This document shows positions 1 through 11,922 of a stretch of 64,000 bases of DNA, piece after piece. Where the stretch lies: contig JAYTSD010000044.1 in the NCBI GenBank assembly GCA_043745805.1, positions 30,280 to 94,279 of the forward strand, given 5' to 3'. Position 1 is the first letter of the stretch. Each line of letters begins with the position of its first letter. The position numbers were made by a program, and so were the translations under genes. Below the pieces are notes generated by a model. That model did not search any database, was not told the origin of the DNA, and worked only from the letters and a program-made list of their open reading frames with translations. This DNA comes from Fibrobacteria bacterium. GTDB taxonomy: Bacteria; Fibrobacterota; Fibrobacteria; UBA11236.

Positions 1-1524
1 AAGGTCTGAGCCCATACCGATGGATTGAATAAAAAAATGTTGCTGCCAAGGGGCTACGGTTCCCGGACCATAAAGATTAGCATCATATTCATAGAGATAG
101 CCTATTCCCGCAGGGTTAACCGCATTCTTTACCTTTTTTAAATGCTGCATATTATTTGCGAGTAACAAACTATAATCTGCCGCGATATCATCGCCTGCTG
201 GCGCAATGCCCACATACTGTGTTAAAGTTCGCATACACCAAGCATAGCCTCGTGTTTGGCCATTATAATAACGGGATGTTCCTAAATTAGGGGACGAAGG
301 ATCCGTTGTCCAATCTACCGCGCCTGCCATGAGATAAGCGGTGGCAACTTGATTTTCCATGGTTTCGAGATAAAAATAATCGCCGGTAATTATATAGGCG
401 AGATAGCCACCAGATCCATGATGCGAGTTTTCCCAGCTTAAATTTCCCGCACCCGAATTGGTACTACCACCTTGATCCGCTCCATCAAGACTCCAATTGG
501 GTTTGTTCGAAGGTTTAGTCGGAAGATTGGTCCCACTCTCATTCCATTCAATAGCATAATTATTAATAGCTTTAGCATTGGCCAGCACGGCTTTATAAGC
601 ACGTGGATCACCGAGAGAGGTTATAAACATCGCATCCCATAGCGGCATAAGACCTAATTGCGCTTGATAACCCGTTTCCCCCATATTCACGGTCCAATCT
701 CCATTTTGATTTGGAGCATAATTTTGATAAAGTCCATTTAATACTATTGCGCTTGGGGTATTAATCATATAGTTTGGAACCAACTTAGCGAATTTTAAAT
801 ATTGCGTATCATGTCTAGGTGTTACCTGTGGATCCCCGCCAACCCAACCTTCAGCCGTCCAACGGGTATGCGCATAATGCGTTAAACTTGCACCCGCATT
901 ATTATAAACTGTTGTTCCACCAATAATAATGGTGGGAATATAATTTTTATTAGCCGTAGTTTTGTCGAGATAGCCATTTTCAATAACCGTACGTATCCAA
1001 ATTTTTCCGCCTTTATATAAGCGAACATAAAACCACACCGCTAAGGTAGCATCGCTGCCCACAGCGGATCGATAATGCGCTTCAACCATTTCGGGACCAA
1101 TAATCCAAGTGCGAAAAGGCGTAGCTAAAAGACTAGATAAATTAACTGTTCCTATAGTGCCCAATTTAACGGAAGCAGAAGGATTAGCGGTGGCAATATT
1201 TGCAGCGACAAGATTTACACCTGAAGGAATTAAGGAACTATCCACATTTACCGTTAAGGGGACTCCCGAAGTCAAAGCCACTTGTCCCGAAGCAATAGCA
1301 TGTTTAACGCTGCCATCATTCCAGCGTCTTTTAACTATAACTTGCGAGGTAACAATATTTAATTTCGGAACATTCGGAATATCCCCTTTTTTAAAACCAA
1401 GCCCCACCGTAAAAGGCAATGTTCCACTGGTTGCTGAGGTTAATTGAAAAGTAGTGATGGGAGCAGAATAAGTATTGAGACTAATAATGAATTGAGCCAA
1501 AACGAAGAGGATGATTTTATTCAT
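1..1524 (-). CDS. Secreted protein, YetA/PcRGLX (exo-rhamnogalacturonan lyase-like) type; runs off the left edge
   Basis: Not in the ORF track because it has no stop in the window. Manual translation from ATG 1524: MNKIILFVLAQFIISLNTYSAPITTFQLTSATSGTLPFTVGLGFKKGD...VKRRWNDGSVKHA, open to position 1. Signal peptide; PFTVG..F..G and WxDGSVK resemble the YetA/PcRGLX N-terminal domain. Confidence 0.65.
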   Translation of the reverse strand, partial: MNKIILFVLAQFIISLNTYSAPITTFQLTSATSGTLPFTVGLGFKKGDIPNVPKLNIVTSQVIVKRRWNDGSVKHAIASGQVALTSGVPLTVNVDSSLIPSGVNLVAANIATANPSASVKLGTIGTVNLSSLLATPFRTWIIGPEMVEAHYRSAVGSDATLAVWFYVRLYKGGKIWIRTVIENGYLDKTTANKNYIPTIIIGGTTVYNNAGASLTHYAHTRWTAEGWVGGDPQVTPRHDTQYLKFAKLVPNYMINTPSAIVLNGLYQNYAPNQNGDWTVNMGETGYQAQLGLMPLWDAMFITSLGDPRAYKAVLANAKAINNYAIEWNESGTNLPTKPSNKPNWSLDGADQGGSTNSGAGNLSWENSHHGSGGYLAYIITGDYFYLETMENQVATAYLMAGAVDWTTDPSSPNLGTSRYYNGQTRGYAWCMRTLTQYVGIAPAGDDIAADYSLLLANNMQHLKKVKNAVNPAGIGYLYEYDANLYGPGTVAPWQQHFFIQSIGMGSDL

Positions 1525-1767
1525 AGTCAACCCTTAAAAAAAGGAATAAGTAAAAAGTTTCTTGGCAGCAATATTAGCCATTGCTAGGGTTAAACTGCAA
1601 ATAATGTTTAACCCTCACCAAAAAATAACTGCCTTGCATAGGATTAAGTATCGCACGGAATGGTTGGCTATGTATAGGGGTTTTATCTCCAATTTATCAT
1701 TTGTTTAGTGAACAAATTTCGTTCCAAGCTCAAATTGTGGAAATTCCACTAGACCTGATACTTGTAT

Positions 1768-2631
1768 TTAAGGAAAGGGAATTGACTCCAAATTAAAAGT
1801 GACGGTGTCTTCGCCTGCATCTGCTCTGAAAATATTTACCGGAATAAGCATTCTCCACTGAGCATGATTCGCATCGATAAAACGACAAACTGTATTGTAA
1901 TCAAGCCGGTAGATTTTCATGTAGGCGTATATGTCGCTGGAATTTTCAGAAAAAGGAATCCAAGCTGTGCTATCCTCTAAATACTGAATCCAGGGTGAAA
2001 TTATTTTTAGGGATGTAGTAGGATGCATATAAAAATCAATACGCCCATCTGGAGTGATGTAGGCTTTAAAGGTTCCGTTACCTCCAAAGATGGTATCGTT
2101 AGTGCCTTGGTAATTTCCCTTATAAATGCCAATCCATTTCGAACTTATTACAGAATTTTTATAGGTAACCTTCATAAATTTAATCACCAATTGAAGATCA
2201 TTTATTTCATAATCAGTTAAGGATCCAATTTCTCCCATATCTATGGTTTCGCCAAAAGATAATTTTGCAAAATGAGAAAAATCTACATGGCCACGATATT
2301 CAAATACCGGATTTTCAACAAACCCATAATTCACATTATTCGAATCTTTTTTTATCAACTGAATAACAAAAGTAAAAAAATCATTTTTACCAATTATCTC
2401 CTGATTATAGATATTACTCTCAATATTTGCCATTTTCAGGGTAACTTTCCCTAAATCCTGAGTTAAGCTAAATCGAATCTTTTGATTGTAAGCAAGACCG
2501 AGATCCGAAAAGACATGTCTTTTTTCAATTCCCAAATGCTTATCGGGACCAGGATTTTCCAAGCATCCATTAAGAACGCCAAGCAAAAAACAAAAAAGGA
2601 AATTAACGCCTATGCTACTGATAAACTTCAT
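1768..2631 (-). CDS. Putative lipoprotein, paralog of the adjacent gene
   Basis: ORF 1768..2658; likely start MKFISS (2631); lipobox-like LNGC; shares GVLNGCLENPGPDKHLGIEKRH and C-terminal DTVTFNxESI with its neighbour. Confidence 0.8.
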   Translation of the reverse strand: MKFISSIGVNFLFCFLLGVLNGCLENPGPDKHLGIEKRHVFSDLGLAYNQKIRFSLTQDLGKVTLKMANIESNIYNQEIIGKNDFFTFVIQLIKKDSNNVNYGFVENPVFEYRGHVDFSHFAKLSFGETIDMGEIGSLTDYEINDLQLVIKFMKVTYKNSVISSKWIGIYKGNYQGTNDTIFGGNGTFKAYITPDGRIDFYMHPTTSLKIISPWIQYLEDSTAWIPFSENSSDIYAYMKIYRLDYNTVCRFIDANHAQWRMLIPVNIFRADAGEDTVTFNLESIPFP

Positions 2632-3455
2632 ATCCATTCTCCAAAAAGAAATTTCCAAACGAAATGTTTAAGGCAAAAATTAACGTGGAGTAATGGATTC
2701 AAAATTAAAAGTAACCGTATCTACTGCCAACAGACTTTGCCTATAATAATGAGGATTTAACATCATCCATTTACCATGTTTCGCATCTATAAGCCCACCA
2801 AGAACATTAAACAATATATGATGTTCGCTATAATAATATTCCGCATAATGCCAACCCTCATTATAATAAGGTGCAAAAGGAATCAAGGCTATAGAATCAT
2901 TTACAAAGGTATTAGCATGCAAAAAAATATCCGTATTCCCCTGCGCATCAATATAAGCGTGAAAATTTCCTGCATGACCATAAAGGGTATCGCTGGTTCC
3001 TAAATAGGTTCCCTTATAAATACCACTCCATTTCGAATTTAAAATCGAATCCTTGTACGAAGCTTTTATGAAATTAATTTGCAATTCGAGATCTTGTATT
3101 TCATAATCAACTAGGGATCCAATGAGTCCCAAATTTCTGGTTTCATAAGGTGAAAGTTTTTCCATATGACCATAATATTCAAAAACTGCATCTTCCAAAA
3201 AATAACGTGTGTCCAAAAGATAAGGATTTATTTTTTTTAATTGAATAATAAAATCAAGACTATCATAGATTTCAGGACCTCTAAAATCATTGGTAACTTT
3301 CAAGTTAATCTTCCTCAAATCTTGGGTCAAATCGAATTCAATTGCCTCATGATTTGGAAGTACTGAAGAGAAGTGGGCATGTCTCTTTTCAATTCCCAAA
3401 TGCTTATCGGGACCAGGATTTTCCAAGCATCCATTAAGAACACCAAGCAAAAAAC
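2514..3455. repeat. 78-bp near-identical direct repeat (2514-2591 and 3378-3455) encoding the shared lipoprotein N-terminus
   Basis: Direct comparison of the two copies shows 2 mismatches in 78 nt. Confidence 0.9.
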
Positions 3456-3495
3456 CAAAGAAGAAATAAACACCGGTTTTGATTTTTAATTTCAT
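2680..3495 (-). CDS. Putative lipoprotein, paralog of the adjacent gene
   Basis: ORF 2680..3525; ATG at 3495 (MKLKIK) overlaps the upstream TGA (ATGA); lipobox LNGC. Confidence 0.8.
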   Translation of the reverse strand: MKLKIKTGVYFFFGFLLGVLNGCLENPGPDKHLGIEKRHAHFSSVLPNHEAIEFDLTQDLRKINLKVTNDFRGPEIYDSLDFIIQLKKINPYLLDTRYFLEDAVFEYYGHMEKLSPYETRNLGLIGSLVDYEIQDLELQINFIKASYKDSILNSKWSGIYKGTYLGTSDTLYGHAGNFHAYIDAQGNTDIFLHANTFVNDSIALIPFAPYYNEGWHYAEYYYSEHHILFNVLGGLIDAKHGKWMMLNPHYYRQSLLAVDTVTFNFESITPR

Positions 3496-5567
3496 ATGCG
3501 TATACCCAAAAAAAATCCATTCCATTGAATACCTTGATAATCACCGAACCAATTTTCTCCATCCCTATTAGGGTTTAAATTTGGACGAGTGGCTTTATCC
3601 CAAATTTCTGCATTATAATTCATACCACCAAAAATGGAAAAATAACGTATCGGGGAATAACCTAAAAATAAACGTAACCTTGAATGATAACTGGTATTGT
3701 CCATATCTTGGTCATTATAAATTATTCCCACCCCCAAATCCGCATCTGCAAAAAATGGCTTACGGGGGAAATGCATTCCTATACCTGCACTACCTCCCCA
3801 AAGATGGTGAGGACTAAGCCCTTTCATATCGAATGAGAAATAATTGTAATTGTGAGGTCCTCCTAATAGAAAGGCGGTACGTAACATAGACCTTTCATCA
3901 AAAGTCATTTCCACATTGTGCATGCCATTACCAATCAAATTTATCAATCCTATTACGCCACCTTTACTATGCTTGGCATAATTAATGAGGCCAACTTGTA
4001 TTCCCTCTGATTCTTTATCAACATTTATAACTCCAGCTTGTAAGCCTTTATTTTCATTAGATATATTCAACAAACCCAACTGCAAACCCTTTGCTATTCC
4101 CGTATAGTTAACCATCCCAATTTGCAAACCTTCCAGTGTATCTACGGCATTAACCAAGCCAGAAATTTGTACACCACAATGTTGCTGCAATTCCGAATTA
4201 AAAAGTATTGCAAATTGCAAACCCTTCGATCCGCCTTCACTGCTATTTACCATCCCACATTGCAAACCATTCATGTTACCTAAAGTTTTATTTAATCCTA
4301 AGCACAGTTGTAATCCTTGAATTGAAAAAGCTTTTCCAACTAATAGATTCAAAGAGACATTATGAGAATAGGTAACAGAATCTGTTCCAGGATAACCTAC
4401 TGAGGGCACTATAGCGGCTCTGAATGGGATCCATGTTTCTCTTTGAATAGGTGACCTTTCAATATTAGTATTAGTGTCTAGATCCGTATTCAGCGAATCA
4501 GTTCCTCCACGACTTTGAGTTTTCTCTTTGGCTACCGGAGTAAAGTTATTCATACTCACCGGTAAGTGAGCGGATTTTTCCACATTCACTAAAGCCCGAA
4601 ACAATGACCCGCCTTGTTTTAGACTGATATCATACATTCCAGGTTCTAAACCTAGTTCTACATTTCGACCCAATGTCTTCTGCAATTCAGCCACCAAGGC
4701 ACCTGAAGCGGCTCTTACAAAAAGTCGTCCTTCCATTTTTGCATCCATAACCAATCCAGCTGAAGTGCCACGCAAATCGGTAAGTACCAAATCACCGGTT
4801 CCAGTAAGACGCATATCGTAACTTGGATGTTGCGCCCCCGCTTGGCTACCCTCGGTTTGAGCCAAAGTTTCTTGAAAAGCAAATTCATAAGCTTCACCTA
4901 AGGTCACTTTGCCATCTTGATTTCTATCAGCGGCGCCTCTTAATCCCGTCACTAAAAAATGTGTAAAATAGGAAGCGCGAATACGTTCCGATTCTTGCGC
5001 GGATTCTGTTCCTGAACTTGCGGTTAAAAAAGCATACCCAGAAAGATTAGCGCTTTCATCTACTGAAAATGCCGGTAAACGGCTTCCACCCTTTATGCGA
5101 GTGAGTGCTCCGGATGCACAAGCATCTACCACGGCTAAACGAATTTTAGCGGGAGCGGCATCAATGCGCGATCGAAAATCGGGATAAGACAATTTTTCTG
5201 CGCCGAACATCAATCCATTTTCATCGGAATGGCCGGAAAAATAAACTAATAATTCGGGTTTCCATCCGCCATCCTTTGCATTAGCAATGCGGCCACGCAA
5301 AATTTGCATCGCTGCTAAAAATTGTGCCAGCGTGGGTTCTTTCAATAAAACCATATCGTCGCGTGATACTCCTCCCAATTCTACTAATACATTGGAAAAG
5401 GTACTGGCATCGGTATTGGCATACCGTAGCTTGACGCGAGAAGAACCACCATCATTCGCTCCCACTACCAGAGCAAAACGCCGAAACCCAAGTTCTTTAT
5501 CTGGATTAACATCGGCGTTACATAATAATAAAGCAATACCCAGTAGGAAAATCCCAACGAATTTCAT
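3492..5567 (-). CDS. Secreted caspase-family (peptidase C14) protein with glycine-rich GxQxG repeats and a probable C-terminal beta-barrel
   Basis: Signal peptide; RFALVVGANDG, LRYANTDA, YFSGHS (catalytic His), VVDACASG (catalytic Cys), SYFTHFLVTGLRGAAD; repeated GLQxGxxN units; ends FFLGIRI. Confidence 0.85.
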   Translation of the reverse strand: MKFVGIFLLGIALLLCNADVNPDKELGFRRFALVVGANDGGSSRVKLRYANTDASTFSNVLVELGGVSRDDMVLLKEPTLAQFLAAMQILRGRIANAKDGGWKPELLVYFSGHSDENGLMFGAEKLSYPDFRSRIDAAPAKIRLAVVDACASGALTRIKGGSRLPAFSVDESANLSGYAFLTASSGTESAQESERIRASYFTHFLVTGLRGAADRNQDGKVTLGEAYEFAFQETLAQTEGSQAGAQHPSYDMRLTGTGDLVLTDLRGTSAGLVMDAKMEGRLFVRAASGALVAELQKTLGRNVELGLEPGMYDISLKQGGSLFRALVNVEKSAHLPVSMNNFTPVAKEKTQSRGGTDSLNTDLDTNTNIERSPIQRETWIPFRAAIVPSVGYPGTDSVTYSHNVSLNLLVGKAFSIQGLQLCLGLNKTLGNMNGLQCGMVNSSEGGSKGLQFAILFNSELQQHCGVQISGLVNAVDTLEGLQIGMVNYTGIAKGLQLGLLNISNENKGLQAGVINVDKESEGIQVGLINYAKHSKGGVIGLINLIGNGMHNVEMTFDERSMLRTAFLLGGPHNYNYFSFDMKGLSPHHLWGGSAGIGMHFPRKPFFADADLGVGIIYNDQDMDNTSYHSRLRLFLGYSPIRYFSIFGGMNYNAEIWDKATRPNLNPNRDGENWFGDYQGIQWNGFFLGIRI

Positions 5568-6466
5568 TTTCCCTCCTGAGGGCGAGCATGTGAAGAAGAT
5601 ATTTCTTTCTCAATAGTATAAGTGTATTGCCTAAATGTACTGGGCAAGGCCATTAAAGTATCGGAAACATTTTGGCTGAAAGCAAATTCCCTGCGAATCA
5701 ATCTCAGCAGACTATCGCAAGCAAATGGTTCGGATGAAGTAAGCAAATAAAATCGTTCATACTTAGGAGCCTGATCTAATCGAAATGCATTCGGAAGCCC
5801 TTGCATATTACCCTCTTGTAGTTTTAAGGCTGGCCCCTCCGTTTCAGGAAAATGTAAAGTCATATTTCCCGCACCGTCACGAGAAAATATCATTCCATAA
5901 ACAGATTTTCGATTATGATAAAATACCTGCAAAATATCTCCGGCCTTGGCCTTATCATGAGGAAGTAGTAATTCCGTTCCTAATTTGGTTTTTCGGAAAA
6001 TCACTAAACCCGATTCAGTACCTTTTAAAAGAATATCAGGAGTTTCCGTAGCTAGTGGAATAAGGCTTGCATCGGATCCACGAATTTCAACTTGATTTTG
6101 CATTGGTCGCAAGGTTAAAAAAATACCCACTATTAAAGTAGCCAATGCAGGAAATCCATAACGTAGTTTAAACAAATTCTGTCTAAGTGTTTGCCGTCCA
6201 TTTTCAGCACCGAGTAGGGAATATTTTTTTTGTTTAAGATGATTAAGGCGAGTTTGCTGGCGACGTTGAATAGCTATTGCCATTGCTTTAGGTTCATAGG
6301 CTGTTAAAATCTCTTCATTCGATTTTCGAATACCGTTAACGCGCTCTTGCAATACGCTATCTGTTTCACAAAACATTTGAATCTGTGCATTGCGTTTTGC
6401 ATCTAATTCACCTGCTACAAAGCGCTCTAACATTAAATCGGATATTTCATTTAATTCTTGTTTCAT
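5564..6466 (-). CDS. Putative membrane anti-sigma factor with a DUF4384/ActD-like extracytoplasmic domain
   Basis: N-terminal SDLMLERFVAGEL helix, single TM (LATLIVGIFLTL), LLKG motif, GDILQV...YGMIFSRDGAGNMTLHFP...LPNAFRLD..P..ERF; directly downstream of the ECF sigma. Confidence 0.7.
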   Translation of the reverse strand: MKQELNEISDLMLERFVAGELDAKRNAQIQMFCETDSVLQERVNGIRKSNEEILTAYEPKAMAIAIQRRQQTRLNHLKQKKYSLLGAENGRQTLRQNLFKLRYGFPALATLIVGIFLTLRPMQNQVEIRGSDASLIPLATETPDILLKGTESGLVIFRKTKLGTELLLPHDKAKAGDILQVFYHNRKSVYGMIFSRDGAGNMTLHFPETEGPALKLQEGNMQGLPNAFRLDQAPKYERFYLLTSSEPFACDSLLRLIRREFAFSQNVSDTLMALPSTFRQYTYTIEKEISSSHARPQEGK

Positions 6467-6987
6467 TACGAATCCTTTCCCATCAAGCTTTGGGAGTTAC
6501 TCTTCTTTTCCCATGCATTGCCACCTTTTTGGGCAATATGGGTTTTTAAATTTTCTAACCGTCGACGAACGCCCGCCGCCGATATTTCTACTACTTCACT
6601 GATTTCAGAATAAGTCAAGCCATCCACATAATGCAAAACCGCCATAACCTTGGTACTTTGCGGTTGCCGATGAAATATCCAGTCTATTATGCGCTTCACT
6701 TGAAAAGTTTTTTCAATGTCTTCGGAAGAAGCAATGGTTGCTAATAGTTCATTGTTTTCGCGATACCGATTTTCAGCCAGATTGATTTTATCTAAACAAA
6801 TTCGCGTGGCAGCGGTAAATAAATAACTGGTAGGATATTCAATTTCTGAAGGATGATTATTGAGTAGGCGTAGAAAAACCTCCTGCATGGCATCCAAAGC
6901 ACTGTCTTTATCTCCCAGCATTTGCTGGCATCGTCTTAAAACCATGGGTCCATGCTTCCTATACAATTCCTCAATATCCATCACCAA
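6466..6987 (-). CDS. ECF RNA polymerase sigma factor
   Basis: 173 aa; region 2 (LYRKHGPMVLRRC...DAMQEVFLRL) and region 4 (LHYVDGLTYSEISEVV...GVRRRL). Confidence 0.92.
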   Translation of the reverse strand: MVMDIEELYRKHGPMVLRRCQQMLGDKDSALDAMQEVFLRLLNNHPSEIEYPTSYLFTAATRICLDKINLAENRYRENNELLATIASSEDIEKTFQVKRIIDWIFHRQPQSTKVMAVLHYVDGLTYSEISEVVEISAAGVRRRLENLKTHIAQKGGNAWEKKSNSQSLMGKDS

Positions 6988-7034
6988 TTGAACTTTCCTT
7001 TCGGAACCCCTTTAAAAGGCGCCCTTCAAATATG

Positions 7035-7062
7035 TAACGGCTCAGAAAACCAAAAGCGTCAC
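7035..7062 (-). promoter_or_regulatory. Candidate autoregulatory ECF promoter
   Basis: Minus strand reads GTGACGC-16 nt-CGTTA about 48 nt upstream of the sigma start; the CGT -10 core and 16-nt spacer are typical of ECF promoters. Confidence 0.4.
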
Positions 7063-7220
7063 TAAAAAATTATTTTTTTGATTTAAGCCGTAAATGGACC
7101 AAATGAGTTATTGCAGCAATGCAAGCAAATATAAATTGCAATATATTTAAAATTCTGCCCGATTCACATTTGTAATATAACTATGCCTGCGCTTGGAAAA
7201 GAAAATAATTCAGTCCGTAC

Positions 7221-7246
7221 CAAAAAAAGGCCCCTAATTAGGGGCT
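7221..7246 (-). terminator. Rho-independent terminator after the DHOR gene
   Basis: Minus strand AGCCCCTAATTAGGGGCC followed by T7. Confidence 0.7.
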
Positions 7247-7391: not shown

Positions 7392-9929
7392 TTATAATGA
7401 ATTTAAGAATTTAACCACTGCCGCTGATTCACCAGTGGACAAGGCTTTGAATTTTGCAGCTGCTGCCGCGCCTTCACCACCATGCCAGAGAATAGCTTCT
7501 TCAAGAGTACGAGCACGTGCATCATGCAAGTAATTTGCATCCGGTTTGCAAGTTTGTTTTTGAATTAAACCCACTACACCACCCGTTGCGCAAGGAGAAT
7601 TACCAATGCCCCATAGTGGTGGCGTACGCCATTCCGCACCCGTGGCTTGACCTTCGGGTAAATTATCAGCCAAACCGGCACCCATATCATGAAGTAATAA
7701 GTCCGTATAAGGATGAATGGTTTGATCGCGAAGCTCTGCTTTAGGAGCGAAAGCGCTAGTCTTTAAGGTAGGAATGTGACAAGCCACACAACCCATGCTG
7801 GTAAATAAGGCTTCACCTTGTAAAGCCACTGGGTCTTTATAATCGCGACGAGCGCGTATGCCTAATAAGCTGATATAATCCACTAAATGACTTAAGCTGC
7901 TATCCGCAAGCTCCGTACCCGTTGCACCACAATTGGTTTCTTCCGAACCGCAATCGGGCTTAGGTAACAAAGAAGTCATCACGCCCATATCCGTATTGAA
8001 GGCGCCAGCAATTTGATGTTTCACATCGACTTTACCGGCTTTCCATCCAAAGCGACCCATACGTGGCTGACTGGTTACGGGGTCATTTACAATATTAATA
8101 CGACCCGAAATACCATCTCCATTTGCATCATTGGGGTCTTCCAAGGCTTGAATAGCCGTTTCTGGAATAGCTTCCAATAATCCCATGCCTACTAGTTGAG
8201 GTGTTGTGCGAACCGAATAATTAATGGGAGTAACACCTGTGAAACCGTAATTTGCTTTACGCAAACCATTACTTTCCACCCAACTCAAAATTTTACCTTC
8301 GCCTTCAGAATTTCCAGCCGTATTTTGCGGTTGTAATACGCCGCCTAATTTTGGATGAGGATTACCATTGGCATCGCCTACTTTTACCACCATATTATAA
8401 AGTGGTCCGCCCACAACTGGCGTTGTACCACGACCATTACGAATATGACATTGATTACAAGATGTATTAATATAATTGGGACCACCTTTTCCGGCATTTT
8501 CTTCCCAAATTGGATTCTCGGGTTCATCATGTGCACCTGTAATAAAATTGGTATGTAATACGCGACGTCCTAAAACAAAGGGCTGTGCATTTTCACCATC
8601 AATATTGGTGGCCATTTGCATGAAATTTTTGTCGGGTTCATCGGATATTTGTTTATGCAAAGTTGTGCGTCCGCCTAACCAAGTAGCCTCGTCCATTTTA
8701 TGTGAGTTTTCTCTTTCCGAAGCTTGATTTTCCCATACTCCAACAGTGTCCCAGGGAACCATACCGCCCACACCTACTTCATACAAAAATACGGTGCCAT
8801 AGTAGTTATCGCGACCCACGGGAGGATTTGGCATAGTGAAATCTAAAAATTGGCTAGCTTCAATTTCCATAAACTGACCTACTGCAAGTGGAGATTCTTT
8901 GCCGTCAAGCCCAATCGATGTTTCAATAGTGTAAATGTATTTCCATTGATGTCCTTGATCACTTATTTTATTGTGATTCTCATCATAAGTACCCACGCCT
9001 AATTTTGTAAAGCGTGGCGCATAATTGCCATAATATTGCGCTTCACTTCCACGACCCGAATACCAAGCACGGAATTCTGGTAATTGATCAAGCTTCCATT
9101 CGGTTACCCAACTCACTTCCATAGTATGGCCACCCTTGGCTACATGGTCAGTGATGATATAACGAGCTGTACGAAGTTCCCAATAATGCGGAAGATAATG
9201 ATCATGACTTTGGAAATTATTTTCACGGCTATGACGGTCGCGTGCTCTATCGCCCCAACGGGTAACAATGGCGGTACCTATATCTTCGCGGACTAAACGA
9301 TTCAATTTGGTATTTCCGCTGAATAATGGAATTATTTTTGGCGTACTGAAATCTACGGTTAAATTTGTGCCCTCTACGATTTGATATACTTGCGTCACAT
9401 AACCAGTTTTGCTACAAACAATAGAAGCCGAAATGGCTGCCGTTTTCGCTAAGGTATTCTGTGTAGCCATGCCTTCGAAAACCAAACCCGAGCCGGTATT
9501 TACGAAGCGTCTTTTAAAGGATTCTTTGGGAGTAGTGATAGTTATAAAATACAATCCTTTGTTTTGTTGACTGAAAGCAACATGCTCTCCGAGCTTAATA
9601 GATTGGTTAAACACCTTTTGACCCTTGGTATTTAATATCGTCACCGTGGCTCTTTCTCCAAAAGCAAGAGGGATTTGTGATAGCGAAAAATTTTGTTGGG
9701 AATTAGGATTGGATTTATAAATGGAATTAACCAATCCATTTAAGGTCAACTTTCCTGCATTATCGGAAGTTCCCGTAGGTCCTCCATTTTGCGCACAAGT
9801 TACGCCTGCAATCGGTGCATTCTTTGCATCTTGCAGCGTAACAATTACTTCTGAGTCGGCCACCTGAAACAGAGTAACCGTTAACAGCGTTGCCAATGTT
9901 GTGTTTAGTCCCATTTGCTTTCCTTTCAT
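7392..9929 (-). CDS. Secreted di-heme oxidoreductase (DHOR family) protein with a long N-terminal extension
   Basis: Two CxxCH motifs (SCNQCH, GCVACH); PQLVGMGLLEAI, DGISGR, GRFGWKA, PYTDLLLHDMG, EWRTPPLWG, YLHDARARTLEEAILWHGGE. Confidence 0.88.
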   Translation of the reverse strand: MKGKQMGLNTTLATLLTVTLFQVADSEVIVTLQDAKNAPIAGVTCAQNGGPTGTSDNAGKLTLNGLVNSIYKSNPNSQQNFSLSQIPLAFGERATVTILNTKGQKVFNQSIKLGEHVAFSQQNKGLYFITITTPKESFKRRFVNTGSGLVFEGMATQNTLAKTAAISASIVCSKTGYVTQVYQIVEGTNLTVDFSTPKIIPLFSGNTKLNRLVREDIGTAIVTRWGDRARDRHSRENNFQSHDHYLPHYWELRTARYIITDHVAKGGHTMEVSWVTEWKLDQLPEFRAWYSGRGSEAQYYGNYAPRFTKLGVGTYDENHNKISDQGHQWKYIYTIETSIGLDGKESPLAVGQFMEIEASQFLDFTMPNPPVGRDNYYGTVFLYEVGVGGMVPWDTVGVWENQASERENSHKMDEATWLGGRTTLHKQISDEPDKNFMQMATNIDGENAQPFVLGRRVLHTNFITGAHDEPENPIWEENAGKGGPNYINTSCNQCHIRNGRGTTPVVGGPLYNMVVKVGDANGNPHPKLGGVLQPQNTAGNSEGEGKILSWVESNGLRKANYGFTGVTPINYSVRTTPQLVGMGLLEAIPETAIQALEDPNDANGDGISGRINIVNDPVTSQPRMGRFGWKAGKVDVKHQIAGAFNTDMGVMTSLLPKPDCGSEETNCGATGTELADSSLSHLVDYISLLGIRARRDYKDPVALQGEALFTSMGCVACHIPTLKTSAFAPKAELRDQTIHPYTDLLLHDMGAGLADNLPEGQATGAEWRTPPLWGIGNSPCATGGVVGLIQKQTCKPDANYLHDARARTLEEAILWHGGEGAAAAAKFKALSTGESAAVVKFLNSL

Positions 9930-10179: not shown

Positions 10180-11922
10180 TTGGAGAAGCTTATTTTTATT
10201 CCACTTCCTTTTTTGCGACTATTCCTAATTGCCTTTTTTTTATTTCCGATTCTCACTTTAGCTGCGGGACAATTAGGCATCAATATTAATTTGGCTGAAC
10301 AAGGCGGAAGCTTTGTCGATATGGTCAAAGAAAATTATCACTGGTCAAGTATAGGTGGAACCGAATTAACTATCTCACAAGTGGATACAAATGGCTGGCC
10401 CAAAAGTGATGCCATATTTGGAATGGATTATCGTCCTGTAGCCGAATGGGCCGGGCAAATTGATGATCCAGAAAAATACCGCCTCGATCTTTCTGGCATC
10501 TATAAATGTGATTTCAATGGCAAAGCAACGGTAGTCGCTACTTCAGGAGCTACTGTTCAAAATATTTTATATGATTCTGCGAGTAATCGCAGCACCTTCG
10601 ATTTTATTATGGACACTCCCGCAGCAAATTATGGATTTGTTCAATTGCGATTTACCAATACTCGTCGAACCTCACAAGCTACTTTGGGTTCTGGTTTAAC
10701 GGGATTACGTATGTATCGCCCAGGTTACCCATTAAATTCCTCCAAGATATTCACCGATGCTTTTTTAGCCGCTCTTGTAGGTGTAAATTTTTCGGCGATT
10801 CGGTTTATGAATTTTCTCGCCTCCAATGAGAGGGAACCCACATATCCTGCTATTATCGAATGGTCACGGCGAAAAACACCGCACGATGCTTCACAGGTTC
10901 CACTTGCCGTATTAGACCGCAATGAAGGTGCCGCTTGGGAATATGTAATACAACTTGCCAACCAATCGCACAAAGATGCATGGATCAATATTCCAGTTGC
11001 AGCAACTTCAGATTATGTACATCAGCTCGCTAAGCTTTTAAAAGATAGTTTGAATCCTAGCTTAAACATTTATGTGGAAAGCGGTAATGAAGTTTGGAAT
11101 AGTGGTTTTATTCAACAGGCCTACAACAAAGCTCAGGCTAAGGCCTTGGGCATAGATGAACAAAATAATCATGCTCGTCGCACCGTGGAATTAGCCAAAT
11201 TATTTCAAGACATATTCGGGACAGGCACCTTAAACCATCGTATTCGCATAGTATTATGCAGCCATGCTCCAATGTTGAAATGGTGGTTAGAACCGATGTT
11301 ACAGTATGTGCAAAAAACATTTGGGACCCCAGCTGATTTTATTTATGCTATTAGTTGCCAAGGTTATTTCGATCTCCCTGCCGTCGCAGGACAAAGCATT
11401 CCCGATATTCTTTCTGCGGCGCGTGCAAGCATTACATCACAATTAGATGAAACCGGAAGCGTAAATGAGGCGGGCCGAAAACAATGGATAGCCAAAGCGA
11501 AAGCTTGGAGTTTTTCCGGAGGATTTATGATTTACGAAGGAGGTCCTTCCGAGGCAATTGGTAATGTTACCAATGTAGCCAATCGTATTAATGCACAAAG
11601 AGATTCGGGAATGGGTGAATTAATAAAATATAATTATGGAGCTGGCTTTCTTGATTTAGGCGGCACTTTGGCCATGCAATTCACTCTCAGTAGTGGCTTT
11701 ACACGTTACGGGTGTTGGGGACTCACAGATGATATAACAAAACCTAATCGCAATTTTAAATATCGTGCCATGCAAGCCTTGGCAGGTAGTTCAGTCGGAA
11801 TTGTACCTAAAGCTAAAATCAAATCGCCTAGTAATCCTTCAAAATGGACGGGCGAACATGGGTTTCAATTATTTTATTGGGGTTGGCGAGATTTATTAGG
11901 TAAGAAGTTTTTAAACGATTGA
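10180..11922 (+). CDS. Secreted putative glycoside hydrolase / cellulose-binding-type protein
   Basis: Signal peptide; IRFMNF, WEYVIQLAN...DAWINIP, IYVESGNEVWN (NE acid/base-like), MIYEGG, YGCWGL; C-terminal WRDLLGK tail. Confidence 0.65.
   Translation: MEKLIFIPLPFLRLFLIAFFLFPILTLAAGQLGININLAEQGGSFVDMVKENYHWSSIGGTELTISQVDTNGWPKSDAIFGMDYRPVAEWAGQIDDPEKYRLDLSGIYKCDFNGKATVVATSGATVQNILYDSASNRSTFDFIMDTPAANYGFVQLRFTNTRRTSQATLGSGLTGLRMYRPGYPLNSSKIFTDAFLAALVGVNFSAIRFMNFLASNEREPTYPAIIEWSRRKTPHDASQVPLAVLDRNEGAAWEYVIQLANQSHKDAWINIPVAATSDYVHQLAKLLKDSLNPSLNIYVESGNEVWNSGFIQQAYNKAQAKALGIDEQNNHARRTVELAKLFQDIFGTGTLNHRIRIVLCSHAPMLKWWLEPMLQYVQKTFGTPADFIYAISCQGYFDLPAVAGQSIPDILSAARASITSQLDETGSVNEAGRKQWIAKAKAWSFSGGFMIYEGGPSEAIGNVTNVANRINAQRDSGMGELIKYNYGAGFLDLGGTLAMQFTLSSGFTRYGCWGLTDDITKPNRNFKYRAMQALAGSSVGIVPKAKIKSPSNPSKWTGEHGFQLFYWGWRDLLGKKFLND

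Follow-up and report, generated by a model that had tools for sequence, protein, structure and literature searches.

Classical anti-sigma proteolysis is exemplified by the action of DegS and RseP on RseA, of AlgW on MucA, and of Prc and RseP in cell-surface signalling. Site-1 cleavage is carried out in the known cases by serine proteases (DegS/AlgW, Prc and PrsW-type), which are usually encoded apart from the sigma factor. To our knowledge, the protease that makes this first cut has been named for only a minority of ECF sigma/anti-sigma pairs, and almost none of the abundant bacterial caspase homologues has a known substrate.

The ECF sigma factor DdvS of Myxococcus xanthus is paired with DdvA, a transmembrane anti-sigma factor whose periplasmic TPR-CHAT caspase-like domain follows a long flexible linker; a cut in this linker, made in trans within a dimer, is proposed to precede the action of RseP, and DdvA controls a CBASS/CRISPR island (PMC11506125). 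In the type III-E Craspase, a cytoplasmic, RNA-guided system that Cas7-11 activates, the TPR-CHAT protein Csx29 cleaves Csx30, which together with Csx31 holds an RpoE-type sigma factor, and a subset of Csx30 proteins has DUF4384 as C-terminal domain (bioRxiv 10.1101/2022.08.17.504292). PMC8283722 and PMC7475262 describe DUF4384 as a recurrent accessory domain of orthocaspases; in the proteins treated there and in PMC6426788, it shares a single chain with the caspase, either cytoplasmic or of unassigned location.

The locus described here lies in a 64,000-nucleotide stretch of DNA from a Fibrobacteria bacterium (the window), and comprises genes for an ECF sigma factor, a single-pass anti-sigma factor, a secreted caspase and two probable lipoproteins (Table 1). 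It resembles DdvS/DdvA in having an ECF sigma factor held by a single-pass anti-sigma factor, a caspase-fold His–Cys module that is probably periplasmic, and a long flexible linker between the transmembrane helix and the periplasmic domain. Unlike the CHAT domain fused to DdvA, however, the caspase is a separate protein of family C14 (not CHAT, and lacking TPR) with a predicted outer-membrane anchor, the anti-sigma factor bears a small DUF4384-like sandwich, and CBASS/CRISPR genes are absent from the locus. Four of the five proteins have no match among the PADLOC models, and the sigma factor has one weak match (E 0.0039). As in the Craspase system, a caspase-like protease is set against a sigma-binding protein, here with cleavage as a proposal, and DUF4384 recurs, though the window anti-sigma factor is only a weak match to it; the present cassette differs in lacking CRISPR genes and in lying in the envelope with an anti-sigma factor bound to the membrane.

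The classical systems share with this locus an ECF sigma factor, a single-pass anti-sigma factor with a candidate site-1 cut approximately 27–30 residues outside the membrane, and an RseP homologue in the genome, but the candidate protease here is a caspase-family cysteine protease, apparently tethered to the outer membrane and invariably encoded in the same operon. The C14 fold, the His–Cys dyad, the candidate acidic S1 residues and the association of caspase with a DUF4384-like domain recall the orthocaspases and metacaspases (PMC8283722, PMC7475262 and PMC6426788). In contrast to these proteins, the DUF4384-like domain is carried by the anti-sigma factor, the caspase is exported and barrel-anchored according to prediction, and a sigma factor is added. 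Searches of the openly available literature, with part of the ECF-classification supplement among it, yielded no earlier description of the cassette.

Table 1 Features of the sigma/anti-sigma/caspase locus (positions in the window)
Feature	Position	Strand	Details
Intrinsic terminator of upstream di-haem oxidoreductase gene	7230..7245	-	Terminator scan; operon 5′ boundary
ECF-type promoter, putatively autoregulated	7031..7062	-	-35 GTGACG, 17-nt spacer, -10 CGTT..A
ECF sigma factor, 173 aa	6466..6987	-	Possible starts TTG 6987, GTG 6984, ATG 6981
Single-pass anti-sigma factor, 300 aa	5564..6466	-	AF2 model, pLDDT 85
K148-G149 codons, candidate site-1 cleavage site at the anti-sigma linker/domain junction	6020..6025	-	
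Secreted caspase (Peptidase C14), 691 aa	3492..5567	-	Pfam, NCBIfam, AF2 pLDDT 86.5, Foldseek, VIA-align
Catalytic His113 (SGHS) and Cys150 (DACASG)	5118..5231	-	His113 at 5231..5229, Cys150 at 5120..5118
K159-G160 codons in R-x-K-G-G, candidate autoprocessing site	5088..5093	-	
R353-G354 codons, start of disordered linker to outer-membrane anchor, candidate release site	4506..4511	-	
Probable lipoprotein 1, 271 aa	2680..3495	-	Begins at MKLKIK rather than at 3525, where the longer ORF starts
Probable lipoprotein 2, 287 aa	1768..~2631	-	Tandem paralogue of lipoprotein 1

Operon, promoter and distribution

The five minus-strand open reading frames are headed by one ECF-type promoter, in the order sigma factor, anti-sigma factor, caspase and two lipoproteins. 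The anti-sigma gene overlaps the sigma stop codon (TAATG, 6468..6464), and ATGA overlaps join the anti-sigma and caspase genes (5567..5564) and the caspase and lipoprotein 1 genes (3495..3492), in keeping with the translationally coupled operon proposed in a first-pass annotation of the locus. The same annotation had placed an ECF-like promoter at 7035–7062, which is borne out by conservation: 27 of 35 relatives carry G[TG][AG]AC-N19-GT[TC] 5′ of the sigma gene, compared with a mean of 0.9 and a maximum of 4 in shuffles. Moreover, a PWM built from the cross-phylum motif, which weaker targets could escape, ranks the window promoter as the top match in the genome (26.0 bits; 3.95 Mb scanned). 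Four further matches of 18.7–25.4 bits all lie antisense within a repeated coding region on contig C17 and were set aside as repeat artefacts; the remaining matches score at most 15.6 bits. The conservation of the promoter and its rank in the genome suggest that the sigma factor autoregulates its own operon. The motif is partly palindromic (GTAACA..TGTTAC) and also matches on the reverse strand in 14 of the 35 loci; an operator for a dimeric repressor was considered in place of a promoter, and is treated as the less likely reading because positions 9, 27 and 33 are conserved but lack a symmetric counterpart.

The sigma factor belongs to the ECF (group 4) sigma-70 factors, with matches above the cut-off to Sigma70_r2 (PF04542; 40.4 bits, cut-off 24), r4_2 (PF08281; 27 bits, cut-off 25.7) and TIGR02937 (63.7 bits, cut-off 42.9). 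FecI-type NCBIfam models score 41–43 bits, far under their cut-offs of 185–260, and FecIRA-type signalling finds no counterpart in domain content, with a FecR or STN domain in none of the five proteins by Pfam and NCBIfam. In the ECF classification (Casas-Pastor 2021, PMC7826278), group ECF25 is characterized by a +1 anti-sigma factor with DUF4384, a zinc-binding domain or DUF4349 and by a GGAAC..GTC promoter, and its entry includes single-pass anti-sigma factors with DUF4384 and taxa such as Fibrobacteres, Spirochaetes, Deltaproteobacteria and Acidobacteria. Compared by description, the cassette fits this group in its DUF4384-like anti-sigma factor and its taxa; its GTRACA-N17-TGTT promoter is unlike the one quoted there for ECF25s1/s2, and the supplement text examined (PMC7826278, in part) does not mention 'caspase'.

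The cassette is widespread. Thirty-five related loci, retrieved by anti-sigma peptide patterns alone, span Fibrobacterota, Spirochaetota, Aminicenantes/Acidobacteria (Acidobacteriota) and Myxococcota, with single MAGs of Gammaproteobacteria and 'Clostridia' among them; the cassette is present in Myxococcota, as the first-pass annotation had stated, and in at least four other phyla. The order of the sigma, anti-sigma and caspase genes is identical in all 35 loci (one of which is cut before the sigma gene), and also holds throughout a second, diverged family of approximately 25–33% identity (14/14 loci, one of them in the window's own genome). By gene order, these three genes are the core cassette; the repeats of the caspase and the lipoproteins are not counted as core because the former are missing in 8 complete relatives and the latter occur in only one of the 35 loci. 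Conservation of the flanking genes does not extend past close lineages, so synteny does not allow a wider operon or regulon to be inferred. The anti-sigma family numbers 4031 representatives of 50%-identity clusters (E ≤ 1e-3) and is matched in 149 of the 201 sampled genomes of the phylum; its members include rumen Fibrobacter relatives and Treponema, and at least 2944 caspase relatives are found among 90%-identity clusters. Among the sequencing runs listed for this DNA, none is of RNA; the four of DNA are sediment metagenomes of a single study, and two of these may be its source.

The twin lipoproteins of the initial operon description are indeed tandem paralogues that follow the caspase (45% identity, E 2e-74, with 84/90 identical nucleotides at positions 31–120 of the two genes), but the homologue 3′ of the caspase in a single related locus (L001) leaves them outside the core. 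They are graded as probable lipoproteins because the lipobox, LNGC, is atypical, and may represent co-transcribed, lineage-specific accessory cargo of this Fibrobacteria genome. Lipoprotein 1 has no match in the Pfam, NCBIfam or PADLOC models. The lipoprotein of the module on contig C17 shows no sequence similarity to either of the window lipoproteins (E 1.2).

Architecture of the anti-sigma factor and the caspase

The anti-sigma factor is modelled by AF2 as a cytoplasmic helical domain (residues 1–87), a transmembrane helix (approximately 105–118), a disordered linker (121–147) and a β-sandwich predicted to lie outside the membrane, in the periplasm (150–290). The helices of residues 2–87 have pLDDT values above 90, and residues 6–69 align to RslA of the SigL complex (3hug_B; Z 6.2, 62 residues aligned). 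On this model, the protein is a class I anti-sigma factor, with an N-terminal helical sigma-binding domain and one transmembrane helix, encoded next to its sigma factor. The ZAS motif H-x3-C-x2-C is absent from its sequence. A paralogous anti-sigma factor on contig C17 carries the motif as HHVLGCLQC.

The periplasmic sandwich is matched by DUF4384 (PF14326) with 21.3 bits and E 2.8e-4, under the gathering cut-off of 27; the same family is matched by 45 of 120 anti-sigma relatives at E ≤ 0.01 and is listed for one relative in a precomputed table. These weak matches suggest a divergent DUF4384 domain. Fold searches with the sandwich returned generic Ig-like and macroglobulin-domain matches only (Foldseek E all ≥2.5e-3; VIA-align Z ≤ 8.8), and a search of PDB sequences with the anti-sigma profile returned nothing beyond a chance resemblance to the WD40 'FSxDG' motif. 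The likeness to the MG domains of alpha2-macroglobulin (Z 7.2–8.5) is of the same generic kind and was not built on. Within the sandwich, S195, D197, D231 and E237 are further polar positions that do not vary, which indicates that the domain is constrained beyond a cut site.

The caspase is laid out as follows in the AF2 model: after a signal peptide (residues 1–18) come the caspase domain (28–255), a β-sandwich (261–345), a disordered linker (348–375), a β-helix of LA_2272 repeats (377–545) and an 8-stranded outer-membrane barrel (547–691). Peptidase_C14 (PF00656) is matched with 33.2 bits (cut-off 21.4), and in 36 of 36 proteins when the 35 relatives are included. The fold aligns to the metacaspase AtMC4 (6w8r) with a VIA-align Z of 21.0 and an r.m.s.d. 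of 2.8 over 208 residues, and the best Foldseek match is Yca1; modelled fold and His–Cys dyad together place the protein in peptidase family C14. The dyad, already recognized as intact in the first-pass annotation, is invariant, as are Asp53 and Asp148 (36/36, and 14/14 in the diverged family). Catalysis is under selection, since the dyad and both candidate S1 aspartates are kept in 50/50 caspases. In alignment with Yca1, Asp53 falls on the Asp of 'CINDA'; Asp148 stands two residues before Cys150 and is likened to Asp211 of TbMCA2 by position only. The S1 residues Asp95 and Asp211 of TbMCA2 accommodate a basic P1 residue, according to PMC4357240 and PMC6426788. The window caspase may be specific for Lys or Arg before Gly.

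The signal peptide, GxQxG repeats and barrel-like C-terminus of the earlier description also stand. A hydrophobic, signal-peptide-like N-terminus is present in all 36 caspases, the repeats belong to NCBIfam LA_2272_repeat (NF047436; 58.2 bits over four stretches, cut-off 25), and their β-helix aligns to 3p4g (VIA-align Z 15.3). Residues 547–691 align to the OprF N-domain (4rlc; VIA-align Z 15.8, r.m.s.d. 2.1, 121 residues), and also to NspA (Z 13.9), PagL, OprH, OmpW and OmpA; the caspase C-termini finish in strands of the type G-[VIL]-R-[ILF], and PF13505 (OMP_b-brl) is present in shorter relatives (precomputed table). By its predicted structure, the C-terminus is therefore an OmpA/OmpX-like 8-stranded outer-membrane barrel. 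In the solved barrels of the OmpA/OprF kind, both termini face the periplasm and there is no channel for a passenger. Because its anchor is of this type, the caspase with its repeats probably hangs from the outer membrane in the periplasm rather than standing on the surface.

This location speaks against the original proposal that a surface caspase senses an outside cue through its GxQxG repeats and signals inward. The repeats do match a family that NCBI calls 'surface repeat-containing', and similar β-helices are known in secreted adhesins (TPS domains, Ag43), but the barrel aligns to the OmpA/OprF/NspA type, the repeats are entirely lacking in eight complete relatives of the 35, and a protease outside the cell could not reach the candidate site of the anti-sigma factor in the periplasm. 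We regard surface display as very improbable.

Conserved basic–glycine dipeptides

Three basic–glycine dipeptides, K148-G149 of the anti-sigma factor and K159-G160 and R353-G354 of the caspase, each lie at a junction between folded and disordered regions. Two of them (LLK/G in the anti-sigma factor and QSR/GG in the caspase) had been singled out in the first-pass annotation as possible cut sites, and on comparison no short motifs of the system are better conserved. K148-G149, in a block of pLDDT 48 directly before strand 152–160 of the AF2 model, is invariant in 154/154 representatives of the family. Across the window and the 35 loci, Lys is kept in 36/36 and Gly in 35/36, and K-G persists in 13 of 14 members of the diverged family, in which most other residues differ. 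In the caspase, K159-G160 lies nine residues past Cys150 and opens a disordered loop (159–173, pLDDT below 50); it reads K-G in all 36 proteins, and the diverged family has K/R-G there without exception (14/14). Position 353 is Arg in 35 and Lys in one, followed by Gly in 36/36; all 14 members of the diverged family have K-G, which brings R/K-G to 50/50.

The anti-sigma site reads [IVT]-R-[LIV]-K-G, which is similar to the [TI]-R-x-K-G-G motif of the caspase itself. Arg occupies P3 in 135 of the 154 anti-sigma representatives; the window anti-sigma factor has Leu146 at this position, compared with Arg157 in the window caspase. Co-variation at P3 between the two sites was considered for the main family and rejected, as the caspase has Arg in 35/36 whatever the anti-sigma factor has; in the diverged family, P3 varies in the caspase loop as well as in the anti-sigma site. 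The invariant K-G could instead be structural or ligand-binding and not a scissile bond. A complex prediction for caspase residues 20–350 and anti-sigma residues 122–300 scored 0.00 and 0.00 and, made without control runs, weighs neither way.

Proposed mechanism and alternatives

We propose a three-part autoregulated cassette of an ECF sigma factor, a single-pass anti-sigma factor with its sandwich on a disordered linker of approximately 27 residues, and a Sec-exported caspase of the metacaspase/orthocaspase kind, which would be held in the periplasm by its C-terminal 8-stranded outer-membrane barrel. The caspase zymogen would process itself at two sites: K159|G160, within the loop that follows the catalytic Cys, and R353|G354, where the cut would free it from the outer-membrane anchor. 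As a dedicated site-1 protease, it would then cut the anti-sigma factor at the invariant K148|G149, leaving a stub of approximately 30 residues whose degradation would be completed by an RseP-type site-2 protease; the genome holds an RseP-like Peptidase_M50 gene (213 bits). The freed sigma factor would transcribe its own operon from the GTRACA-N17-TGTT promoter, giving positive feedback. A brake would be needed because the caspase would induce its own synthesis; the analysis identified no candidate for one. That an Arg/Lys-specific caspase processes itself and then cuts the anti-sigma factor at K148|G149 is, in our judgement, evenly balanced between true and false.

The caspase could also be the output of the pathway. 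The DUF4384-like domain would then sense some other periplasmic cue, general proteases (DegS, Prc or similar) would degrade the anti-sigma factor, and the sigma factor would induce a periplasmic caspase, tethered to the outer membrane, that reshapes or degrades envelope proteins in quality control, programmed death or defence, with the K/R-G sites of the caspase serving its own maturation alone. The one strong genomic match to the promoter motif does drive the caspase-containing operon, the caspase is the sole gene always co-inherited with the sigma/anti-sigma pair, and the additional invariant polar residues of the sandwich could make a ligand site. Nevertheless, this reading leaves unexplained both the K-G kept at the anti-sigma junction throughout the family, and surviving in the diverged one, and the likeness of that motif to the R-x-K-G-G of the caspase, and elsewhere DUF4384 is repeatedly tied to caspase-type proteases. 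We consider it possible, although unlikely. Contact signalling in the manner of FecA–FecR is also conceivable: the anchored caspase would bind the sandwich, loss or change of contact (through envelope damage or the width of the periplasm) would let other proteases reach the anti-sigma factor, and the caspase would cut other substrates. The anchoring of the two proteins in opposite membranes, each on a long disordered tether, would suit such an arrangement, and the tight coupling of their genes agrees with a stoichiometric complex. However, a TonB-dependent transducer and a FecR-type domain are lacking, the FecI-type scores are far below their cut-offs, and the invariance of the dyad and both candidate S1 aspartates points to selected catalysis; contact signalling appears decidedly unlikely.

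An extension of the cleavage mechanism, which we put forward as a doubtful possibility, is a self-amplifying switch across the periplasm. The outer membrane would carry the caspase zymogen and the inner membrane the anti-sigma factor, both by flexible tethers, and their meeting would depend on envelope geometry or integrity, or on self-release at R353|G354; the cut at K148|G149 would free the sigma factor, yield more caspase and commit the cell to envelope remodelling or suicide. If true, the switch would give bacteria an extracytoplasmic equivalent of a caspase activation cascade, common to Fibrobacterota, spirochaetes, Acidobacteriota and myxobacteria.

In this cassette, a specific protease comes together with a specific candidate substrate, in which the scissile bond is predicted at K148|G149; self-processing is predicted at two further sites, and the promoter is defined for use in a reporter. 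Given the size of the family, the mechanism would annotate thousands of entries that now read 'caspase family protein' and 'hypothetical protein'. If established, it would represent a cysteine-protease branch of regulated anti-sigma proteolysis, beside the fused CHAT domain of DdvA and the cytoplasmic Craspase–Csx30 system.

The operon and its promoter

Five minus-strand genes make up region 1768–7062 of the window, which has a GC content of 33–45% and belongs to a host genome of 3.95 Mb that is 99% complete; judged by the cassette locus, the nearest relatives are Fibrobacteria MAGs. The sigma factor scores above the cut-offs of Pfam Sigma70_r2 and r4_2 and of TIGR02937. The gene overlaps reported in the first-pass annotation (TAATG, ATGA and ATGA) are all present in the sequence. 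The di-haem oxidoreductase gene upstream ends in a terminator, and the operon therefore begins after it.

Features of the operon, its two main proteins and the second cassette
Feature	Position	Strand	Basis
Terminator of upstream di-haem oxidoreductase gene	7245..7230	minus	terminator scan
ECF-type promoter of operon	7062..7031	minus	profile match, 26.0 bits
ECF sigma factor, 173 aa	6987..6466	minus	ORF
Single-pass anti-sigma, 300 aa	6466..5564	minus	ORF
Caspase homologue, 691 aa	5567..3492	minus	ORF
Probable lipoprotein 1	3495..2680	minus	paralogue of lipoprotein 2
Probable lipoprotein 2	about 2631..1768	minus	paralogue of lipoprotein 1
Anti-sigma helical N-terminal domain	residues 1–87		AlphaFold2, confident
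Anti-sigma TM helix	residues 105–118		AlphaFold2
Anti-sigma disordered stretch	residues 121–147		AlphaFold2, pLDDT below 50
Anti-sigma β-sandwich	residues 150–290		AlphaFold2, confident
Caspase signal peptide	N terminus		structure model
Caspase domain	residues 28–255		structure model
Caspase β-sandwich	residues 261–345		structure model
Caspase disordered linker	residues 348–375		structure model
Caspase β-helix of LA_2272 repeats (first fold of the all-β C-terminal half)	residues 377–545		VIA-align, best match 3p4g, Z 15.3
Caspase 8-stranded outer-membrane barrel (second fold of the all-β C-terminal half)	residues 547–691		VIA-align, OprF N-domain Z 15.8, rmsd 2.1
Second cassette of same genome	contig C17, about 118.1–122.0 kb		locus L039: 9–590, 584–1435, 1432–3012, 3006–3890

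The pattern G[TG][AG]AC-N19-GT[TC] occurs upstream of sigma in 27 of 35 sequences, 66–148 nt from the conserved sigma start, against 0.9 on average and 4 at most in shuffled sequences. The corresponding profile, GTRACA-N17-TGTT-N2-A, has its best match in the genome in front of this operon, exactly where the first-pass annotation had placed a promoter. The next matches (18.7–25.4 bits) are four copies in a repeated coding region on C17, another contig of the genome, and all others score at most 15.6 bits. These four copies, at about 54.9–57.4 kb on the minus strand with a spacing of about 440–1500 nt, lie antisense within a very long repetitive gene and are probably a side effect of its coding repeat. 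Since the sole top match outside the repeats is that of its own operon, the sigma factor appears mainly to drive its own operon, within reach of the scan. The motif is partly palindromic, with reverse-strand matches in 14 of 35 loci, and is read as a promoter because its conserved flanking positions are asymmetric.

Nucleotides 31–120 of the two lipoprotein genes (window 3376–3465 and 2512–2601, minus strand) are identical at 84 of 90 positions, compared with about 50–70% identity in the rest. The last part of the signal peptide and the mature N terminus CLENPGPDKHLGIEKRH are encoded here, and such high identity suggests gene conversion or a strongly constrained tether. The sequence ENPGPD is also present in the lipoprotein orthologue of locus L001, the only one of 35 cassette loci with a lipoprotein homologue.

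The upstream di-haem oxidoreductase (DHOR, E 1.7e-65) is encoded by an 845-aa ORF (window 7392–9929, minus strand) with a T9SS sorting-domain match (TIGR04183, 31 bits; cut-off 23) at residues 74–143, near the N terminus, whereas the usual position is C-terminal; the ORF may be fused or mis-started. No Pfam or NCBIfam match was detected for the flanking ORFs at window 1–1530 (minus strand, 510+ aa) and 10180–11922 (plus strand, 580 aa). The former lies on the same strand as lipoprotein 2, 237 nt downstream of it, and the terminator scan detected no terminator between them. Among the runs listed for window 1700–7200 are four sediment-metagenome DNA runs of one study, two of which may be its source, and none of RNA.

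The three-gene core and its distribution

Loci were collected from one genome per species with two peptide patterns, both derived from the anti-sigma only. In all 35 loci a caspase of this type is next after the anti-sigma, and sigma precedes the anti-sigma in 34, the remaining locus ending at a contig edge. By ORF coordinates, which rest on predicted starts, almost every locus has abutting or overlapping genes; the gap in locus L010 is 108 nt. According to their titles, the loci belong to Fibrobacterota, many Spirochaetota (Treponema, Marispirochaeta, Brevinematales), Aminicenantes/Acidobacteria, Myxococcota (Polyangia, Kofleriaceae), one Gammaproteobacteria MAG and one 'Clostridia' MAG. No neighbours are conserved around the three genes beyond close lineages in the 35 loci, and the repeat segment has no match in eight complete caspases from this set. 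The core is a three-gene cassette of sigma, anti-sigma and caspase.

The diverged cassette on C17 comprises sigma, anti-sigma, caspase and a lipoprotein-like gene, all overlapping. Its anti-sigma carries an HxxxCxxC zinc motif, and its caspase (526 aa, 33% identical to the window caspase) is devoid of repeats and ends in ...GLW. With this anti-sigma as the query, 120 sampled genomes of the phylum and that of the window (121 in all) yielded 13 further loci in 8 other genomes. The order sigma, anti-sigma, caspase is found in all 14 diverged loci, and this second cassette provides an independent test.

This is a large family. At E ≤ 1e-3, the anti-sigma profile matched 4031 representatives of 50%-identity clusters in a full HMMER search; 1671 of these reached E ≤ 1e-30. 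Of 201 genomes sampled from the phylum, 149 have a match to the anti-sigma, among them 50 of the 51 from one genus; the tally takes in one unpublished genome (G194). Relatives of the caspase domain number at least 2944 among 90%-identity clusters; their names, where they have any, go no further than 'caspase family protein' or 'hypothetical protein'.

Protein architecture and predicted topology

The anti-sigma model (pLDDT 85) has four parts. The N-terminal helices align to RslA, an anti-sigma of M. tuberculosis (Z 6.2). The fold matches of the sandwich are generic (Ig/MG-like only); DUF4384 is sub-threshold here (21.3 bits; cut-off 27) and is matched by 45 of 120 anti-sigma relatives at E ≤ 0.01. 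Within sandwich residues 195–239 (window about 5750–5884), the polar residues S195, D197, D231 and E237 are invariant, as is F239, and H205 and K287 of the sandwich are nearly invariant. These conserved residues may make up a site that binds a ligand or metal or docks a protease; the diverged family has not preserved S195 and D197.

The caspase scores above the Pfam cut-off for Peptidase_C14 and its structure model has a pLDDT of 86.5. The caspase domain is similar to Arabidopsis metacaspase 4 (VIA-align Z 21.0), and the first-ranked Foldseek match is Yca1. The barrel-like C terminus and the His/Cys dyad noted in the first-pass annotation both stand: residues 547–691 form an 8-stranded barrel in the model, to which the NspA, PagL, OprH, OmpW and OmpA barrels also align (VIA-align), and neither His113 nor Cys150 varies among the 36 caspases or the 14 of the diverged family. 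Shorter caspase relatives have OMP_b-brl (PF13505) beside Peptidase_C14 in a precomputed Pfam table, and a language-model similarity search with residues 376–691 returned 'LA_2272' and 'outer membrane beta-barrel' clusters, a lead only.

Asp53, aligned to the Asp of Yca1 'CINDA', and Asp148, two residues N-terminal of Cys150, are likewise invariant (36/36 and 14/14). In TbMCA2, the acidic S1 residues Asp95 (helix α1) and Asp211 (loop L4) accommodate a basic P1 residue (PMC4357240, PMC6426788). Likened to these, Asp53 and Asp148 favour, but do not prove, Arg/Lys specificity of the caspase.

In the models, the anti-sigma is predicted to have its sigma-binding domain in the cytoplasm and its sandwich beyond the inner membrane, and the caspase is predicted to be exported. 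Solved 8-stranded barrels of this class have both termini in the periplasm and no passenger pore, which places the caspase domain, its sandwich and the β-helix most likely in the periplasm, where a flexible linker ties them to the outer membrane. The anti-sigma domain most likely faces the caspase, hung from the inner membrane on a second flexible linker, with protease and proposed substrate most likely in one compartment.

Candidate cleavage sites and proposed mechanism

Three conserved basic-Gly dipeptides each lie at a folded/disordered junction of the structure models. Conservation across anti-sigma homologues bears out the K/R-G motif suggested in the first-pass annotation: K148-G149 is invariant in 154/154 representatives (P3 is R in 135), and the window and 35 loci have K in 36/36 and G in 35/36. 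The K-G is kept in 13 of 14 members of the diverged family, the exception being K-A-G. The site lies 7 to 29 residues (mostly 16–21) past the terminal Pro of the TM region, directly before the first strand. In the caspase, K159-G160-G161 is part of the motif [TI]-R-x-K-G-G in 36/36 sequences (K/R-G in all 14 members of the diverged family), nine residues past the catalytic Cys at the beginning of loop 159–173 (pLDDT 31), which is where animal caspases have the intersubunit linker whose cleavage activates them. At R353-G354, where the linker to the anchor begins, a variable and disordered stretch, the first residue is R in 35 sequences and K in one, and the second is G in 36/36 (K-G in 14/14 of the diverged family). 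The motif [IVT]-R-[LIV]-K-G of the anti-sigma resembles the R-x-K-G-G of the caspase itself.

The best-supported reading, held with middling confidence, makes the caspase a site-1 protease dedicated to the anti-sigma, as suggested by invariable co-inheritance, the intact catalytic apparatus, site conservation, the autoregulated promoter and, by model, the shared compartment. The caspase would process itself between K159 and G160 and between R353 and G354, and would cut the anti-sigma between K148 and G149. The stub would then be removed by the RseP-type protease encoded in the genome (Peptidase_M50, 213 bits), and the released sigma would induce the operon in a positive feedback. We infer all of these proteolytic steps, and the signal. 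That the caspase is instead a regulated effector is a tentative second option, and contact signalling without cleavage is improbable. The version in which the caspase acts as a surface sensor is very doubtful: the 8-stranded barrel with periplasmic termini, from the model and general knowledge of such barrels, contradicts the surface caspase of the first-pass annotation.

Precedents are described in the literature. In DdvA, a periplasmic, caspase-like CHAT domain is fused to the anti-sigma (PMC11506125), whereas here the candidate protease is separately encoded and tethered to the outer membrane. Craspase cuts the sigma-binding Csx30, the C-terminal domain of which is DUF4384 in one group (bioRxiv 10.1101/2022.08.17.504292), and DUF4384 is a frequent accessory domain of orthocaspases (PMC8283722, PMC7475262, PMC6426788). 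In the available part of the ECF-classification supplement (PMC7826278), ECF25 has DUF4384-bearing anti-sigmas and occurs in the same phyla, and no caspase is named among its conserved neighbours. No earlier description of the sigma/anti-sigma/caspase cassette was found in the literature searched. The known frame is the regulated proteolysis of ECF anti-sigmas; what is new is that the candidate protease is a caspase with a gene of its own and a predicted tether to the outer membrane, and that the predicted cut site is precise and testable.
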